Sequence record: PV610699.1
Reading direction: 5' to 3' (one strand)
Source: Pseudomonas phage PaFZ4
Length of the DNA stretch: 43,335 nucleotides
Under the pieces are notes generated by a model that made no database searches, was not told where the DNA came from, and was given only the letters and a program-made list of their open reading frames with translations. Below, piece after piece: positions 1,975-37,911 of the stretch. Made by a program: the position numbers and the translations under genes. Numbering within the stretch: position 1 is the stretch's first letter; every line of letters starts with the position of its first letter.

Positions 1975-4900
1975 TTATTCCCCTTTGATGGATTCCAACA
2001 GCAACTTGGTTGCCGGGAACACGTTGACGAAAGGCAGTGCGCCCGCCGCGCCGTTGACGATATCGCCAGTGGCCGCTGCCGGGTCGTCGCCGGTTACGAG
2101 GTCTCGAACGCCTCGGAACACTTCGTTGGAGTGTTCAGCCAGTCCGAAGACCGGAGCAGACATTCGGGAGTGGCCAGTGACCACACCCCACATATCGGCG
2201 GTGAAGCCCAGGCCGGCAGTGTAGCCGATGCCGTCGATGGCCATCTTGCGGATGCCTTCGTCAGAGGTGTCGAACTTGCCATTGATCGCTGCCTTGGCAC
2301 CCATCATCAGCGCTGTGAGCGGATACTGGAATGCGAGGAGCGAGGCCACGCCAAGCACGCCGGAGTTCTCGTAGGTTCCCCGGAGGAGCTTGTTGTGCGC
2401 GAAGGCCACGAAGCTGCGGAACTGGCCCAGGATTTGGCCGACCGGCGACCGGGCGAAGCCCGAGTTCTGACCGACCCTGCCGTACAGCAGCGAGTCGTCC
2501 ATGATCCGCAGTGCGGTGTTCATGACGGTGTTCACGTCTGCTTGGCTCCAGGTGCCCCAATTCATCGATTGGGCGTTCCTTCCTCTGTATGTGACATAAC
2601 CGCGAACCCGCGCCAACACTGGCGTCCAGTCCACGTCCTTCCCGTACTGCTGGAGCACGCGAAGGGCTGCTTCATCCCCCTGAGCCGCCCGCGCCACCTT
2701 GTTCAAGGTGAGGTTGGCGTTCATACGGGATTGCCAGTTGTGGATGAACTTCATGCCGTTGAGCACCGGGACAGCCTGCTTACCTGCGTGCAGGAAGCGA
2801 TCCATGAAGGTGTCTTGGCTGGCCAGGAAGGTGTCGAACTGCCGCTTCCAGGGCTTCATCCGGATATCGTTGGCGAGGTTCAGGCCGAGGACGGTCTGCA
2901 TCTCGTCAGCGAGGTCCGGGTCGCGACGCATGGCGCCCACGAAGTCTCCCAGGCGGGAGTTCAGCATGGCCTTCATGACGTTGAAGACGCCTTGACGGTG
3001 CGCCATCGTGGCCAGCTCTGCGAGCTGATACACGCCTGAGAATCCCAGCATGGTGGCGCTGGTCAGGCCGCTGGCCCGCTGAGCAACCGGGCCGAGCTGA
3101 TGCTCCCTCGGCACGTTGCCGGTGAAGTCCCCGAAGACTCCCCGCAGTTGCCCCGTCAGCTCCTGCACCTTATCGGTGCCCAGGTGGGCTGCCTCTCGCT
3201 GGTACTCCCGGATGAAGGCTTCGATCTCCGAGTCCCCCGGCATGCCTGCGCGGGCCAATGCTGCGCGGCCCGACATACTGCCGGCGTAGTTCTCCATCAG
3301 CCGGTCCAGGTCTCGGTCGATCAGGTCCTGCACCCGGTACACGGTGCCGTTGTGGTTGATCTCGGCGGTCATGTCCAGCGACAGCCGGCCCTTGCCGTAC
3401 TTGACGGTGCCCTGGTCGGACTGCTTCTGCTCGATCTTGGCCATGATGCTGTCGAACTTGGCCTGGGACACGTTGGCCTCCTCCAGCGCCTGCCGGATGA
3501 ATGCCGTGTCCGCCACGCCCATCGCTCCCATGAACTCGGAGCGGATTCCGGTGGCCCGATCCCGCGCCCGCTGCACAATGGCCTGTGCGATGGTATCGGC
3601 GTCGGCGCGCTCCAGCCCAGGGATGCCACGGAACACGGCCTCGCTGATGGCACGGCGGGCCAGGCCAGGGGCGGCCTCGTCCATCTGCGCCATCTTCGAC
3701 CAGTTCCATGAACGGTGGAAGTACCCCGGTCGGGGAGCGAAGTCCTCGAAGCCACGCACACCGGCTTCCCTGGCGCGCTGGCCCATCAGACCGTGAATCT
3801 CGTCTGAGCGGTCGGCCAGGGCCTTGATGGTCGGCGGCAGGTTCGGGTCTACACGGACGCTACCATAGGCGGTCCACTCCCGGTCCCGGCGCAGCAGCTC
3901 GCGGGTGACCTGCTCGTTGAGCTGGTCCCGGACTGCCATGGCGCGGCGGGAGTTCAGCGCACGTGCCGTCAGGCCCACACCCTGCTCAGCCATTGCCTTG
4001 GCCATCATCTCGTCGTAGGACTTCACGTAGCCCTCGAACTCGTTCCGATAGCGGCGGAGATAGCTCGCTGCGTTGTCGTTCGTGCTGAACCCATCCCGAC
4101 GTACCGGGTCGTCGATAAGACGGCTCAGGAGTCGCCGTGCGCCCTCTCCAGGCTGTGCCAGGAGGTCTGCCTCGCTGAAGAACCGGTTCACGAAGCCTGC
4201 GCCCTCGCGGGCACGTTCCCTGGTGGTCCTTACGATGGTCTCCAGGCTGGCCTCCTCGGTCACGGGAGCGCCCTTGTTGGCCCACTTGGCCTGTGCCTTA
4301 GTGTAACCGGGCATGGCCTCCATAATCGTCTCAGAGGCGGCCAGGACTCGGCTCAGGGCCGTGTCAGCATCGGACCGCAGACCCAGCAGGGTGCGGATGC
4401 CCTCCACGAAGCGGGACCACAGGCCCGGCCCGCCGTCGCTGTATCGGAGGCGGTTCAGGGTCCGTTGGAAGCGGGTATCCGTCAGGCCCCAAGCCACCAG
4501 TTCCTTGACGTTGGCCAGGGTGTTGGAGTTGCCGGCCAGCAGCGTCTCCTCGAACTCGGACAGTTGCCGACCGGCGGCCCGGTCCTGCTTCAGGGCGTTG
4601 AGTACGTTACCCCGGACGTTCTCCAGGGTCTGCATGGCCTGCGCCACCTTCGGACTCATCGCACCGGGGTTGCGCAGGGCGGCGTTCATCACGCCCACGG
4701 TGGCAGCGTGGACCGCCTCGTGGAGCACGGTCACCGGGTTGGTGCCAACTCGACCAGGTGCGGTGCTGCCGCGTACCTGGACCAAGGTGTCGAGGCCCTG
4801 GGTGGAGTGAATCCCCGCCGTACCCGGTTTGAGGAAGGCAGAGCTGGCAGTGTCACCGCCCTGCACCACACGGAACGCGGTACGCTGCCCCAGGCCCTCC

Positions 4901-5988
4901 AGGGTCCTGATGGTATCAGCCACCTTGGCGGCGATGCCCTGGAGAGGCTTAGGCACCTCTGCGTGGGTCTTGAGGTGGTCCAGGACCTCAGACAGCTTCC
5001 GGCCCGACAGGCTATGAAGCTCGTCGCCGAAGGCAGTGTCACGTCGCGGAATAGCCGGTATCTCAGCCTGCTCCACGCGGGCACTGACACGGGATAGCAC
5101 AGTGCCCTCGTCCAGCAGGTCTACCACGTCACCTGCCTTGAAGCCGCGTGCTGCGGCCTCCTCGGCGGTCATGGCTACTTCTGGCAGCCCGACAGTAGGC
5201 GCCGATACTTCGGGCACATGCGGTTGCGTTGGGGCCTCTGCGGCAATGCGTCCCGCACCAGACCCCAGCAGAGCACCCACGCCAGCGCCAAGAGCACCCG
5301 CCACGATGTAGGTTCCGGCATCCACGTCGGCCCCTGCGGCATCCAGCCCAGCAACATACCCGACTTGCCCAGCGCCGCCAGCAGCAGCCATGCCAGCACG
5401 ACCGAGCCGCAGAGCACGGCCAGCGCCGAAAGTAACCGCATCAACTGCCAGGGCTGCCGGGTCCAGCATACCAGCCGCGAAGTTCCAGTACGGGTTGTCC
5501 CGCACGATTTGTTCGTCCTGCTCATACCGTTGAATCCTCGATAGGAGGTAGGCCGCGTCCTCGGCATTGCCGGCACGGGCCATGATCTGAAGGTAGTTAT
5601 CAGTCGGCTGGATACCTGCCGCCTGGAGCGCCTGGACCCCATAGGTCCCAGCGTCGAAGTTAGGGTCCACCTCGCCGGTACTGTTCGCCGCAAGGTCTGC
5701 GTCGAGCTGGAGCGCATCGCCCCAGCGTCCGACGAGGGTGGACTGGTTCCAGAGTGCGGAAGCACGGTCAAGGGCCGGCAGTTCCTGGTCCGCTACGATG
5801 CGTTCCAGTTCCCGCGCATTGGCTCGTTGGCCCGCTGCCACGTTCCGTTCTCCGATCTCGCCACCCGTCAGGGCGTCGAACCCCACGGTAGGCACCGCGT
5901 CGAGTTGGCCCTGTACTTGGGCCTCGTCGAGCTGTGCTTGGTCAAGGGGATACTTGGGCGTCATGCGGCCCTTGAATTGCTTTGCCAT
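1975..5988 (-). CDS. Internal virion (ejection/core) protein C, 1337 aa
   Basis: Size and position match phiKMV gp37. Large Ala/Gly-rich protein following the gp36-like protein. Confidence 0.9.
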   Translation of the reverse strand: MAKQFKGRMTPKYPLDQAQLDEAQVQGQLDAVPTVGFDALTGGEIGERNVAAGQRANARELERIVADQELPALDRASALWNQSTLVGRWGDALQLDADLAANSTGEVDPNFDAGTYGVQALQAAGIQPTDNYLQIMARAGNAEDAAYLLSRIQRYEQDEQIVRDNPYWNFAAGMLDPAALAVDAVTFGAGRALRLGRAGMAAAGGAGQVGYVAGLDAAGADVDAGTYIVAGALGAGVGALLGSGAGRIAAEAPTQPHVPEVSAPTVGLPEVAMTAEEAAARGFKAGDVVDLLDEGTVLSRVSARVEQAEIPAIPRRDTAFGDELHSLSGRKLSEVLDHLKTHAEVPKPLQGIAAKVADTIRTLEGLGQRTAFRVVQGGDTASSAFLKPGTAGIHSTQGLDTLVQVRGSTAPGRVGTNPVTVLHEAVHAATVGVMNAALRNPGAMSPKVAQAMQTLENVRGNVLNALKQDRAAGRQLSEFEETLLAGNSNTLANVKELVAWGLTDTRFQRTLNRLRYSDGGPGLWSRFVEGIRTLLGLRSDADTALSRVLAASETIMEAMPGYTKAQAKWANKGAPVTEEASLETIVRTTRERAREGAGFVNRFFSEADLLAQPGEGARRLLSRLIDDPVRRDGFSTNDNAASYLRRYRNEFEGYVKSYDEMMAKAMAEQGVGLTARALNSRRAMAVRDQLNEQVTRELLRRDREWTAYGSVRVDPNLPPTIKALADRSDEIHGLMGQRAREAGVRGFEDFAPRPGYFHRSWNWSKMAQMDEAAPGLARRAISEAVFRGIPGLERADADTIAQAIVQRARDRATGIRSEFMGAMGVADTAFIRQALEEANVSQAKFDSIMAKIEQKQSDQGTVKYGKGRLSLDMTAEINHNGTVYRVQDLIDRDLDRLMENYAGSMSGRAALARAGMPGDSEIEAFIREYQREAAHLGTDKVQELTGQLRGVFGDFTGNVPREHQLGPVAQRASGLTSATMLGFSGVYQLAELATMAHRQGVFNVMKAMLNSRLGDFVGAMRRDPDLADEMQTVLGLNLANDIRMKPWKRQFDTFLASQDTFMDRFLHAGKQAVPVLNGMKFIHNWQSRMNANLTLNKVARAAQGDEAALRVLQQYGKDVDWTPVLARVRGYVTYRGRNAQSMNWGTWSQADVNTVMNTALRIMDDSLLYGRVGQNSGFARSPVGQILGQFRSFVAFAHNKLLRGTYENSGVLGVASLLAFQYPLTALMMGAKAAINGKFDTSDEGIRKMAIDGIGYTAGLGFTADMWGVVTGHSRMSAPVFGLAEHSNEVFRGVRDLVTGDDPAAATGDIVNGAAGALPFVNVFPATKLLLESIKGE
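2582..2601 (-). promoter_or_regulatory. Copy C of the conserved 20-bp motif (gene-strand reading GGTTATGTCACATACAGAGG). Candidate phage RNAP promoter inside the 3' end of the internal virion protein C gene, upstream of the tail fiber genes.
   Basis: One of four near-identical motif copies. The placement is analogous to T7 phi17 within the end of gene 16. Confidence 0.45.
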
Positions 5989-5991
5989 GTC

Positions 5992-37749: not shown

Positions 37750-37774
37750 TCCCACGCGTATAGAGACCCACGCG
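37750..37774. repeat. Direct repeat CCCACGCGT-N7-CCCACGCGT (contains the palindromic ACGCGT) just upstream of the promoter cluster
   Basis: Read directly. Confidence 0.5.
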
Positions 37775-37891
37775 TGCGAGGCTTAGTCTGGCTAGCCAGG
37801 ATTATCGTTCCCAGGTAACGCAAATCCACCACCCAGGGAGCAGCCACCCAGCCAGGACCACCACCCTGAAACCCGCGTGGCACTAAGGCTG

Positions 37892-37911
37892 CGGTTATGT
37901 CACACACAATG
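37892..37911 (+). promoter_or_regulatory. Copy D of the conserved 20-bp motif (GGTTATGTCACACACAATGG), the only copy on the plus strand. It faces away from all genes into the purine-rich terminal region.
   Basis: Same motif as copies A, B and C but inverted relative to them. Confidence 0.45.

Follow-up and report, generated by a model that had tools for sequence, protein, structure and literature searches.

What reads the 20-bp motif that recurs in the genome of Pseudomonas phage PaFZ4 (PV610699.1), and what does the one inverted copy, near the genome end, transcribe? We analyzed the whole 43,335-nucleotide stretch, hereafter the window. A search for the motif with up to three mismatches returned exactly four matches (Table 1), and dinucleotide-preserving shuffles (n = 100) returned none. 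The core TTATGTCACNNACA, with one mismatch allowed, recovered these four sites, where 0.09 would be expected, and a weight-matrix scan of both strands scored them at 29.6 to 31.8 bits. As the runner-up site reached only 10.0 bits, the motif is present in four copies and no more, in agreement with the preliminary description of this DNA. Alignments between species showed the copies to be invariant islands amid fast-diverging non-coding DNA.

Table 1. Positions of the features discussed, in window coordinates
Feature	Position	Strand	Predicted start	Basis
Motif copy GATTATGTCACCCACATAGG; promoter, orthologue of LUZ19 P007	17073-17092	-	17073 (G)	≤3-mismatch search; LUZ19 copy 21115-21134, start 21134
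Motif copy GGTTATGTCACCCACAGTGG; promoter, orthologue of LUZ19 P008	16860-16879	-	16860	≤3-mismatch search; alignment; LUZ19 copy 21312-21331, start 21331
Motif copy GGTTATGTCACATACAGAGG; promoter, orthologue of LUZ19 P009	2582-2601	-	2582	≤3-mismatch search; LUZ19 copy 35590-35609, start 35609
Motif copy GGTTATGTCACACACAATGG; inverted promoter, orthologue of LUZ19 P001	37893-37912	+	37912	≤3-mismatch search; LUZ19 copy 732-751(-), start 732(-)
Single-subunit RNA polymerase gene, 832 aa	17095-19593	-		Pfam RNA_pol (E = 3.6e-100); RPOL_N
Purine-rich part of the non-coding leader of the P007-type promoter	16893-17042	-		75% purine; purine-richest 150 bp on the - strand
Purine-rich leader of the P001-type transcript, 351 nt	37913-38263	+		LUZ19 transcription units; alignment
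Conserved 70-aa ORF, phrog_31366	38264-38476	+		GGAGG at 38251-38255; wholly inside the terminal-repeat equivalent
Direct terminal repeat, one collapsed copy	38214-38648			BLAST map and coordinate transfer from LUZ19

Identity of the motif

The window is a Phikmvvirus genome (host Pseudomonas aeruginosa) in circularly permuted and reverse-complemented form. A BLAST map showed it to be collinear with LUZ19, with 96% identity over most of the genome, and a 4-kb query including the RNA polymerase (RNAP) gene (16000-20000) is 99.7% identical in DNA to phipa2. Its single terminal repeat corresponds to the annotated LUZ19 repeats at 1-472 and 43077-43548, and coordinate transfer places the physical left genome end at about 38648. 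The repeat also holds a conserved sigma-70-like site at 38473-38500(+).

In LUZ19, four transcription start sites have been identified by ONT-cappable-seq (Putzeys et al. 2024, Microlife 5:uqae002, PMC10914365). P001 is antisense, P007 and P008 follow the RNAP gene, and P009 is located in gp37. The primary-transcript 5' ends, at 732(-), 21134(+), 21331(+), and 35609(+), are all labelled "phage promoter," and the published consensus is 5'-GgtTATGTCACacACAnnGG-3'. By searching LUZ19 for the motif, we found that every one of these starts coincides with the final G of its motif copy (4/4). Table S6 of that study gives four counterpart sequences in other Phikmvvirus species, including DL62, LKD16, and phikF77; in its Table S3, the "experimental validation" column is empty for P001 and P007 to P009. 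The phiKMV genome likewise contains four copies. Because the LUZ19 starts and Table S6 match the copies in the window, the promoter reading of the preliminary description is supported and the motif is not novel: it represents the already published phiKMV-type phage RNAP promoters, an ordinary finding. What emerged as new relative to the literature that we found is the occurrence of the inverted end promoter in other genera, and an ORF on the inverted transcript.

Taken as a whole, the data make it very probable that the four copies are promoters of the phage's own T7-like single-subunit RNAP, as first proposed; the LUZ19 5' ends, the collinearity, and the presence of a cognate RNAP gene all agree with this. 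The phage enzyme is assigned on the basis of the shared motif, its position, and analogy with Klebsiella phage KP34, whose RNAP is 34% identical to that of the window at the protein level, and the start sites and transcript ends are those of LUZ19. The phage RNAP, instead of the host enzyme, would thus bind the approximately 20-bp element and begin RNA synthesis at the G or GG that terminates it. Its conserved upstream half, TATGTCAC, is equivalent to TAATGTTAC in the KP34 promoter, for which there is biochemical validation. This suggests that the upstream half is the binding region, the variable 3' part probably being the melting and initiation region.

The P007-type promoter shows no variation in five species. 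It had been described as overlapping the RNAP stop codon, but the TGA lies at 17095-17097 and the promoter begins 2 nt past it. The P008-type promoter is located within the 5' end of a gp27-like ORF (16657-16908). From their positions, these two copies would turn on the late genes directly past the RNAP gene. The P009-type promoter is, as first noted, within the 1337-aa ORF, a gp37-like (T7 gene 16-like) ORF at 1975-5988(-), 607 nt before its end (stop included). The tail-fibre, terminase, and lysis genes lie downstream, and their transcription would be boosted by this copy. The inverted copy, originally placed at 37892-37911 and thus off by one base, points at the terminal repeat and is part of a conserved island extending from about -20 to +95 (8 species). 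Its direction is divergent from that of the early sigma-70 promoters, at 37209-37721(-).

Transcripts of the inverted promoter

The inverted promoter would head a leftward unit made up of the purine-rich leader, whose length differs among species, followed by the terminal repeat. In LUZ19, RNAs of 274 nt and 590 nt arise from the P001 unit, together with read-through that on joined genomes is antisense to the right-end genes (PMC10914365). The 3' end of the 274-nt RNA (T002) transfers to position 38229 of the window. This RNA (731->457) stops 43 nt short of the ATG of the 70-aa ORF; some of the transcription thus ends ahead of the ORF. The transcript 731->141, in contrast, spans the LUZ19 ORF (414->193) and ends 52 nt past its stop codon.

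Several features argue that this ORF, in which a Shine-Dalgarno sequence is followed by an ATG, is under selection as a protein. The reading frame is uninterrupted in 14 of 15 genomes, with dN/dS values of about 0.18 to 0.34 in two separate clades (synonymous versus non-synonymous changes, Fisher P = 1.5e-4 and 1.5e-3). The distance from ATG to TGA is always a multiple of 3, whereas the leader has indels of any length. Low pN/pS is restricted to the ORF frame and to the antisense frame that has common third codon positions with it; the latter was rejected as the selected frame, as it contains stop codons in seven genomes whose sense ORF is intact. AlphaFold modelled the protein as a helical hairpin (mean pLDDT of 79, with three sequences only as input), a result to be read in light of the ease with which it gives helices for sequences rich in Arg, Ala, Gln, and Glu such as this one. 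That composition is the expected yield of a purine-rich, GC-rich strand.

The ORF is not annotated in the reference records of LUZ19, phiKMV, and LKD16. The statement that the inverted copy fires away from every annotated gene therefore holds for those annotations, but not once the conserved downstream ORF is considered. We propose that the ORF is a candidate protein-coding gene under the inverted promoter, with translation predicted from its sequence. The 590-nt RNA of LUZ19 would then best be read as the mRNA of a conserved basic helical-hairpin protein of 63 to 73 aa (38264-38476 in the window).

Alternative roles of the inverted copy

An inverted end promoter is also present in LKA1, phi-2, and AS11, with a motif specific to each genus and an otherwise conserved layout; in phi-2 it consists of eight tandem copies. 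We found no counterpart of the ORF behind the inverted promoters of these three phages, and the ORF thus cannot account for the origin of the inverted orientation. In T7, KP34, LUZ19, phiKMV, LKA1, and AS11, the end-proximal promoter lies about 160 to 300 bp inward of the terminal repeat, in either orientation. Describing the copy as a phiOL-type promoter of reversed polarity was apt: the T7, KP34, and LUZ19 promoters are about 245 to 260 bp inward of the left repeat (phiOL start at 405, repeat 1-160; KP34 475-490, repeat 1-216; P001 732-751, repeat 1-472), and among these three only P001 is inverted.

A tentative alternative, a hypothesis of Putzeys et al. (PMC10914365), is that the inverted copy acts as an insulator: antisense transcription over joined genome ends would keep late transcription from entering the early genes of the adjoining genome unit, and the RNA, which would be non-coding, could pair with late transcripts. 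The longest P001 reads of LUZ19 do pass the genome end, antisense to gp47-gp49, and this role was proposed by their authors (PMC10914365). The anti-late-gene orientation is kept in LKA1, AS11, and phi-2, whose inverted promoters have no ORF behind them, and the eight tandem copies of phi-2 would suit a barrier or a polymerase sink. However, the forward orientation of the KP34 and T7 equivalents indicates that there is no general need for insulation, and purifying selection on the 70-aa ORF is left unexplained. Furthermore, head-on T7-type polymerases reportedly pass one another, which speaks against a barrier. Insulation and transcription by the phage RNAP are compatible, and both can hold.

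In T7, phi1.1A/B form the primary replication origin, phiOL serves as a secondary origin, and phiOR and the CJ pause site function in concatemer processing. By analogy, the inverted copy, and perhaps that at 17073, could mainly be a transcription-primed replication origin, the purine-rich RNA making a stable R-loop, or a terminal-repeat processing element, which we consider unlikely. In both the window and LUZ19, these two promoters are immediately followed by the purine-richest 150 bp of each strand (on the + strand of the window, 37949-38098, 72% purine, within the P001-type leader), in LKA1 such a 150-bp maximum likewise lies behind the inverted copy, and the distance of the promoter from the repeat is kept in six phages regardless of orientation. 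Nevertheless, KP34 (305-454) and T7 (120-269) also have bottom-strand purine tracts by the left repeat, which are not transcribed from the promoter, and the tract may hence belong to the genome end independently of the promoter. No purine bias is seen in phi-2, and the two tracts of the window are not significantly alike (18 of 300 shuffles score equally well), that at 16893-17042 having undergone many insertions and deletions between species. We found no data in the literature on replication of these phages. As for processing, the LUZ19 3' end at 457 is 15 bp inside the repeat boundary (472), and the T7 pause motif ATCTGTT at position 161 marks the T7 repeat boundary, but no such motif was found downstream of the inverted promoter.

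That the motif is a site for host RNAP with phage-modified specificity, or for binding or nicking by another protein, is highly improbable: another conserved four-copy Phikmvvirus motif, CCTACTCCGG, is a marker of strand nicks that was formerly annotated as "phage-specific promoter," and we found no in vitro experiment on initiation by a phiKMV-type RNAP at the motif in the literature on these phages, but the LUZ19 5' ends that match all four copies are cap-enriched, a -35/-10 architecture is missing from the motif, whose upstream half agrees with the promoter used in vitro by purified KP34 RNAP (PMC6834552), the motifs of LKA1, phi-2, and AS11 change with the polymerase at constant positions, and the forward promoters of AS11 were confirmed by primer extension (PMC5537680).

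Comparison with known systems

The window does not differ materially from LUZ19 and represents another Phikmvvirus isolate. Consensus, positions, and orientations, including that of the antisense copy, are the same, and three copies have identical sequences; the inverted copy is one base off that of LUZ19 and identical to that of phiKMV, DL62, and LKD16. The P001 transcripts were described as gene-less antisense RNA (Putzeys et al. 2024, PMC10914365), whereas we found a conserved ORF on them.

Acinetobacter phage AS11 (Friunavirus) similarly has a promoter pair directly past its RNAP gene, mapped by primer extension (Popova et al. 2017, PMC5537680). A further, predicted copy that we found at 644-666(-), inverted and about 300 bp inward of the left repeat, is not described in that paper. 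The AS11 motif differs (TTTGAAGTTGCACTWATAGAAGG), and no ORF follows the inverted copy.

For the strong promoter of KP34, T(A/G)ATGTTACAGGAGTA, both in vitro transcription and 5'-RACE have provided validation (Lu et al. 2019, PMC6834552). Our comparison concerns this strong class, one of two in KP34, the other being weak. The polymerase is of the same class, the upstream core ATGT[CT]AC is common to both phages, and the sites are analogous (near the left end, just past the RNAP gene, and within the gene 16 homologue). In contrast, the -7 to -1 part differs, and all three KP34 copies face forward, the left-end copy (475-490) having phiOL polarity.

T7 likewise uses approximately 20-bp promoters that are read by a single-subunit RNAP and start at G. 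The proposed likeness of the pair after the RNAP gene to phi1.1A/phi1.1B was borne out, as these start at 5848 and 5923 and gene 1 ends at 5822. phi17, on the other hand, is not inside gene 16 as had been stated: it starts at 34566, 15 nt past the end of that gene (34551). Like the copy at 2582 it precedes the tail-fibre gene, but it is intergenic, whereas the window copy is intragenic. The T7 consensus is different, the T7 record lists 17 phage promoters against four here, and the RNAP gene and its promoters belong to the early region in T7 but to the start of the late region in the window. Unlike the end-proximal copy of the window, phiOL faces forward. T7 A0 (position 224), a leftward left-end Escherichia coli promoter with no assigned function, resembles both the inverted promoter of the window and the sigma-70-like site in the terminal repeat of the window. 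A0 is, however, read by the host RNAP, and the 20-bp motif differs from the sigma-70 type.

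The promoter motif and the polymerase that reads it

Nearly all long ORFs of the window lie on the minus strand in an ORF scan. The ORF at 17095-19593 encodes a single-subunit RNA polymerase of 832 aa (Pfam RNA_pol, E=3.6e-100), upstream of the late genes; its LUZ19 counterpart is gp26. In BLAST searches, the 4-kb stretch that contains it (16000-20000) shared 97-99.7% identity with those phiKMV-like phages of Pseudomonas aeruginosa that were listed, and 93 records in total matched, with lowest identities of 80-90%. The window is collinear with LUZ19 (NC_010326) once reverse-complemented and circularly permuted; it begins within the tail-fibre region. 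The direct terminal repeat is present as one collapsed copy (38214-38648, equivalent to LUZ19 1-472 and 43077-43548), so that the true virion DNA should be ~435 bp longer, and the physical left end in gene orientation maps to ~38648.

The preliminary description, made from the sequence alone, had proposed a conserved 20-bp motif in four copies. The genome-wide search that it called for found exactly four matches with up to three mismatches and none in shuffled sequence, and weight-matrix scores of 29.6-31.8 bits set the four copies apart from the next-best site in the window, at 10.0 bits. The motif is thus real and restricted to four copies, although two placements had to be amended: the inverted copy lies one base further right, at 37893-37912, and the 17073 copy is clear of the RNAP stop codon that it was said to overlap. 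All four copies, in which TATGTCAC is a sequence element, fit the Phikmvvirus consensus 5′-GgtTATGTCACacACAnnGG-3′, and their positions and orientations are orthologous to those in LUZ19 and phiKMV, with one inverted copy, two after the RNAP gene and one in gp37.

This promoter set, including the exact sequences, has already been published (Putzeys et al. 2024, PMC10914365). ONT-cappable-seq of primary 5′ ends in LUZ19-infected cells identified four promoters with the common motif 5′-GgtTATGTCACacACAnnGG-3′, and 15 other Phikmvvirus species have "almost identical" motifs at matching positions (PMC10914365). The LUZ19 start sites given there in Table S3, 732(-), 21134(+), 21331(+) and 35609(+), coincide exactly with the last G of each LUZ19 copy that we located independently. 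According to Table S6 of the same paper, DL62 and others have the same four sequences as the window, and we found them in the phiKMV genome as well. That a reader without tools recovered the Phikmvvirus set, including the odd antisense copy, is therefore of value as confirmation. By homology, the start sites in the window are predicted at 17073, 16860 and 2582 (-) and at 37912 (+). The 16860 promoter lies inside the annotated 5′ end of a gp27-like ORF whose ATG is at 16908. As transcription is predicted to start 48 nt past this ATG, transcripts from this promoter cannot encode full-length gp27, which is encodable only by transcripts from the 17073 promoter.

The phage RNAP is the likely reader of the motif. 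The published LUZ19 start sites, the orthologous positions and the presence of a cognate RNAP support its earlier interpretation as a phage-RNAP promoter. We found no in vitro test of any Phikmvvirus RNAP on this motif in the literature, and the validation column of Table S3 is blank for the four LUZ19 phage promoters (PMC10914365). The best indirect support comes from Klebsiella phage KP34, whose RNAP is 34% identical to that of the window. In vitro transcription and 5′-RACE showed that the KP34 enzyme uses T(A/G)ATGTTACAGGAGTA and initiates immediately 3′ of it (Lu et al. 2019, PMC6834552). With the start sites aligned, KP34 TAATGTTAC and window TTATGTCAC match at seven of nine positions.

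Another motif, CCTACTCCGG, which is tied to single-strand nicks in phiKMV-like phages, occurs four times in the window against 0.03 expected. The LUZ19 RefSeq record labels the equivalent sites "phage-specific promoter sequence", a label that the later start-site mapping does not bear out.

Features of the window and of the genomes compared with it. Promoter copies in the window were found by a 20-mer search with up to three mismatches.
Genome	Feature	Coordinates	Strand	Remarks
Window	Promoter copy	2582-2601	-	In gp37-like gene
Window	Promoter copy	16860-16879	-	After RNAP gene
Window	Promoter copy	17073-17092	-	Begins two bases past RNAP stop codon
Window	Inverted promoter copy	37893-37912	+	Between left repeat and early host promoters
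Window	sigma-70 early promoters	37209-37721	-	Mapped in window
Window	70-aa ORF, phrog_31366	38264-38476	+	352 nt downstream of predicted start; wholly within terminal repeat
Window	CCTACTCCGG	13408-13417, 23771-23780, 31690-31699, 35339-35348	-	All on the same strand
LKA1 (Stubburvirus)	AATTGTCGCACTAGCATGA	458-476	-	Inverted, 160 bp inside left repeat
LKA1 (Stubburvirus)	AATTGTCGCACTAGCATGA	17847-17865	+	Repeat search
LKA1 (Stubburvirus)	AATTGTCGCACTAGCATGA	21825-21843	+	Overlaps RNAP stop codon
LKA1 (Stubburvirus)	AATTGTCGCACTAGCATGA	31509-31527	+	Repeat search
phi-2 (Tunggulvirus)	AATTGTCACATATATAGGAG, putative RNAP promoter	21280-21299	+	After RNAP gene
phi-2 (Tunggulvirus)	AATTGTCACATATATAGGAG	25274-25293	+	Before capsid gene
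phi-2 (Tunggulvirus)	AATTGTCACATATATAGGAG, eight inverted copies	42355-43116	-	105-bp tandem repeat array, non-coding end region
AS11 (Friunavirus)	AS11 motif, fourth copy	644-666	-	Inverted, ~300 bp inside left terminal repeat

A candidate small gene on the inverted transcript

The function of the antisense end promoter was left as a question by Putzeys et al. 2024 (PMC10914365). We lean, with slightly better than even confidence, towards a joint reading, in which the inverted promoter does more than produce antisense RNA and drives a leftward Phikmvvirus gene and an inverted end promoter is conserved in late-RNAP Autographiviridae. For Phikmvvirus itself, we prefer the small-gene part of this reading, namely a late gene for a conserved basic helical-hairpin protein of 63-73 aa (phrog_31366).

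The left-end region is just 74-94% identical among the fetched relatives. Around the inverted promoter, a block from about -20 to about +95 (window 37873-38007(+)) is nearly invariant in eight species including LKD16, with diverging, indel-containing sequence on its flanks, showing that constraint reaches beyond the 20-bp motif. The two promoters after the RNAP gene likewise form invariant islands in fast-evolving non-coding DNA in the Phikmvvirus alignment. The leader RNA fold is more stable than those of shuffled sequences (z=-4.07), its conserved part being invariant, and Rfam gave no match in the whole window at gathering thresholds. Farther downstream, GGCTAGCCACTCCCGCACCACCACCC (window 38214-38235(+)) is also invariant and straddles the inner edge of the terminal repeat. 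A 274-nt LUZ19 RNA ends, when mapped onto the window, inside this sequence at 38229, 35 nt upstream of the ORF ATG.

The 70-aa ORF is preceded by a good Shine-Dalgarno sequence, GGAGG, 8 nt upstream of its ATG and matches phrog_31366 (E=2e-39), a family with no assigned function. Of the 15 Phikmvvirus genomes examined, 14 have the ORF intact, and it is broken only in one 34-kb record flagged UNVERIFIED; its product has 63-73 aa in thirteen genomes and 44 aa in phage 5401, where 78 nt are deleted in frame. The ATG-to-TGA lengths of 213, 222, 192, 210 or 135 nt are all multiples of 3, and the indels in the leader just upstream of the ORF are of arbitrary lengths. The dN/dS ratio is 0.18-0.34 within two separate clades. 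The window differs from phiKMV at 13 of 49 synonymous and 9 of 161 non-synonymous sites (Fisher p=1.5e-4), with 4, 4 and 14 substitutions at the three codon positions. A low pN/pS was found in only two of the six frames, the sense ORF and the antisense frame with the same third codon positions. An artefact of the antisense frame was rejected as the source of the signal, since that frame has stops in seven genomes with an intact sense ORF. The ORF at 38264-38476 thus combines the marks of a protein-coding sequence, i.e., an open frame, frame-preserving lengths and an excess of silent changes.

AlphaFold, with an input of three sequences only, modelled the product, whose sequence includes MLSRQDRGERAWHQR..., as a two-helix hairpin (mean pLDDT 79). 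A Foldseek search of this model against the PDB and viral models gave no match with E below 1, and among 5.8 billion sequences homologues fell into just two clusters, which are both of Phikmvvirus origin and lack a Pfam domain. In LUZ19, a 590-nt transcript (731 to 141) covers the orthologous ORF (414 to 193) and ends 52 nt past its stop codon, and the 274-nt transcript (731 to 457) stops 43 nt short of its ATG; the published table assigns no gene to either (PMC10914365). We found no peptides or ribosome footprints for the ORF in the literature. Some records, e.g., those of DL62 (gp01), phage SB and RLP, annotate it as a hypothetical protein, and the LUZ19, phiKMV and LKD16 reference records leave it unannotated. 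In total, 82 records match the ORF.

On these comparisons, the ORF is a candidate gene that is not described in the literature we found. A conserved small gene under selection would give a concrete reason for the existence of the inverted promoter, and if the ORF is real, the LUZ19 and phiKMV reference annotations miss a gene. Owing to its location within the direct terminal repeat, it would be present in two copies per virion DNA.

A near-consensus sigma-70 promoter (TTGACA-16-TAGAAT, 11/12) is found inside the terminal repeat at 38473-38500(+), in the orientation of the inverted phage promoter. Its two hexamers are invariant in 15 genomes, its spacer diverges in LKD16 and phikF77, and its TGA serves the 70-aa ORF as stop codon. 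In LUZ19, no start site is reported at the equivalent position.

Inverted end promoters in other genera

We searched the genomes of other late-RNAP phages for further occurrences of the sequence that each has at its RNAP stop codon. LKA1 has four copies of the 19-nt AATTGTCGCACTAGCATGA, which differ from the "LKA1-specific promoters" annotated in its record. In phi-2, the putative RNAP promoter AATTGTCACATATATAGGAG recurs in an inverted array at the genome end. Three forward (rightward) promoters of Acinetobacter phage AS11 have been confirmed by primer extension; the paper reports rightward promoters only (n=3), and the inverted copy is undescribed there (Popova et al. 2017, PMC5537680). Shuffles gave no matches to the LKA1, phi-2 or AS11 motif. 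The inverted end copies in these three phages are predicted promoters that the literature we found does not describe.

This predicted architecture is seen both in Krylovirinae (Phikmvvirus, Stubburvirus LKA1 and Tunggulvirus phi-2, the latter with eight copies) and in Beijerinckvirinae (Friunavirus AS11). The promoter sequence appears to change along with the polymerase, the inverted position at the genome end being retained, which argues that the orientation is functional. Inverted end promoters with a motif of their own in each genus suggest a role linked to the genome end. No convincing counterpart of the 70-aa ORF follows the inverted promoters in LKA1, AS11 or phi-2, so that Phikmvvirus alone may have put an older arrangement to this use.

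Two further roles are not mutually exclusive with expression of the small gene or with each other. According to a published hypothesis, the inverted copy keeps late transcription from reading through into the early genes on joined genomes, which would suit the eight-copy array of phi-2. A role in replication or repeat processing, like that of the T7 end promoters, is one in which we have low confidence. The most purine-rich 150 bp of each strand, 37949-38098(+) with 72% and 16893-17042(-) with 75%, immediately follow the 37893 and 17073 copies in the direction of transcription, and both tracts are indel-rich between species. The same placement is found in LUZ19 and behind the inverted copy of LKA1, and the LUZ19 RNA 3′ end near the repeat boundary is circumstantially in keeping with such a role. 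However, KP34 and T7 have, beside the left repeat, a similar bottom-strand purine tract that is not read from their promoter, and phi-2 has no purine bias, both of which weaken the idea of an R-loop or origin. Homology between the two purine tracts of the window was rejected, as 18 of 300 shuffles equalled their best local alignment score of 25.

The phiKMV-like phages are leading candidates for therapy and also supply orthogonal polymerase-promoter pairs. The study of orthogonal phage polymerases by Lammens et al. 2023 does not include them. The inverted promoters of the other genera and the 70-aa ORF are modest, testable leads.

Comparison with T7 and KP34

The positional analogy with T7 that had been drawn for the four copies holds overall. 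T7 phi1.1A (5848) and phi1.1B (5923) lie just past gene 1; phi17 (34566) was said to lie inside gene 16 but is 15 nt after it. Of the KP34 promoter copies, one is close to the left end (475-490), one immediately follows the RNAP gene and one falls within the gene-16 homologue. The end promoter and the inner border of the left repeat are ~245 bp apart in T7, 259 bp in KP34 and 260 bp in LUZ19, and the inverted copy of the window is similarly close, at ~300 bp from the repeat equivalent, as expected of a promoter of the phiOL/phiOR type, but without the rightward polarity of that type. T7 has phiOL at 405 and the leftward E. coli promoter A0 at 224, which the sigma-70-like site at 38473-38500 resembles. 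A T7-type pause motif, ATCTGTT, was sought downstream of the inverted promoter and is absent there, the sole plus-strand copy being upstream, at 37399.

The copies of the window do not fit the 23-bp T7 consensus TAATACGACTCACTATAGGGAGA (-17 to +6). Partial likeness to it (CAC..ATAGGAG) is confined to the 17073 copy, the others differing at -3 to -1. The motif would be T7-promoter-like in working and lies outside the T7 sequence family, and the end-proximal promoter, which is forward in T7 and KP34, is inverted in the window.
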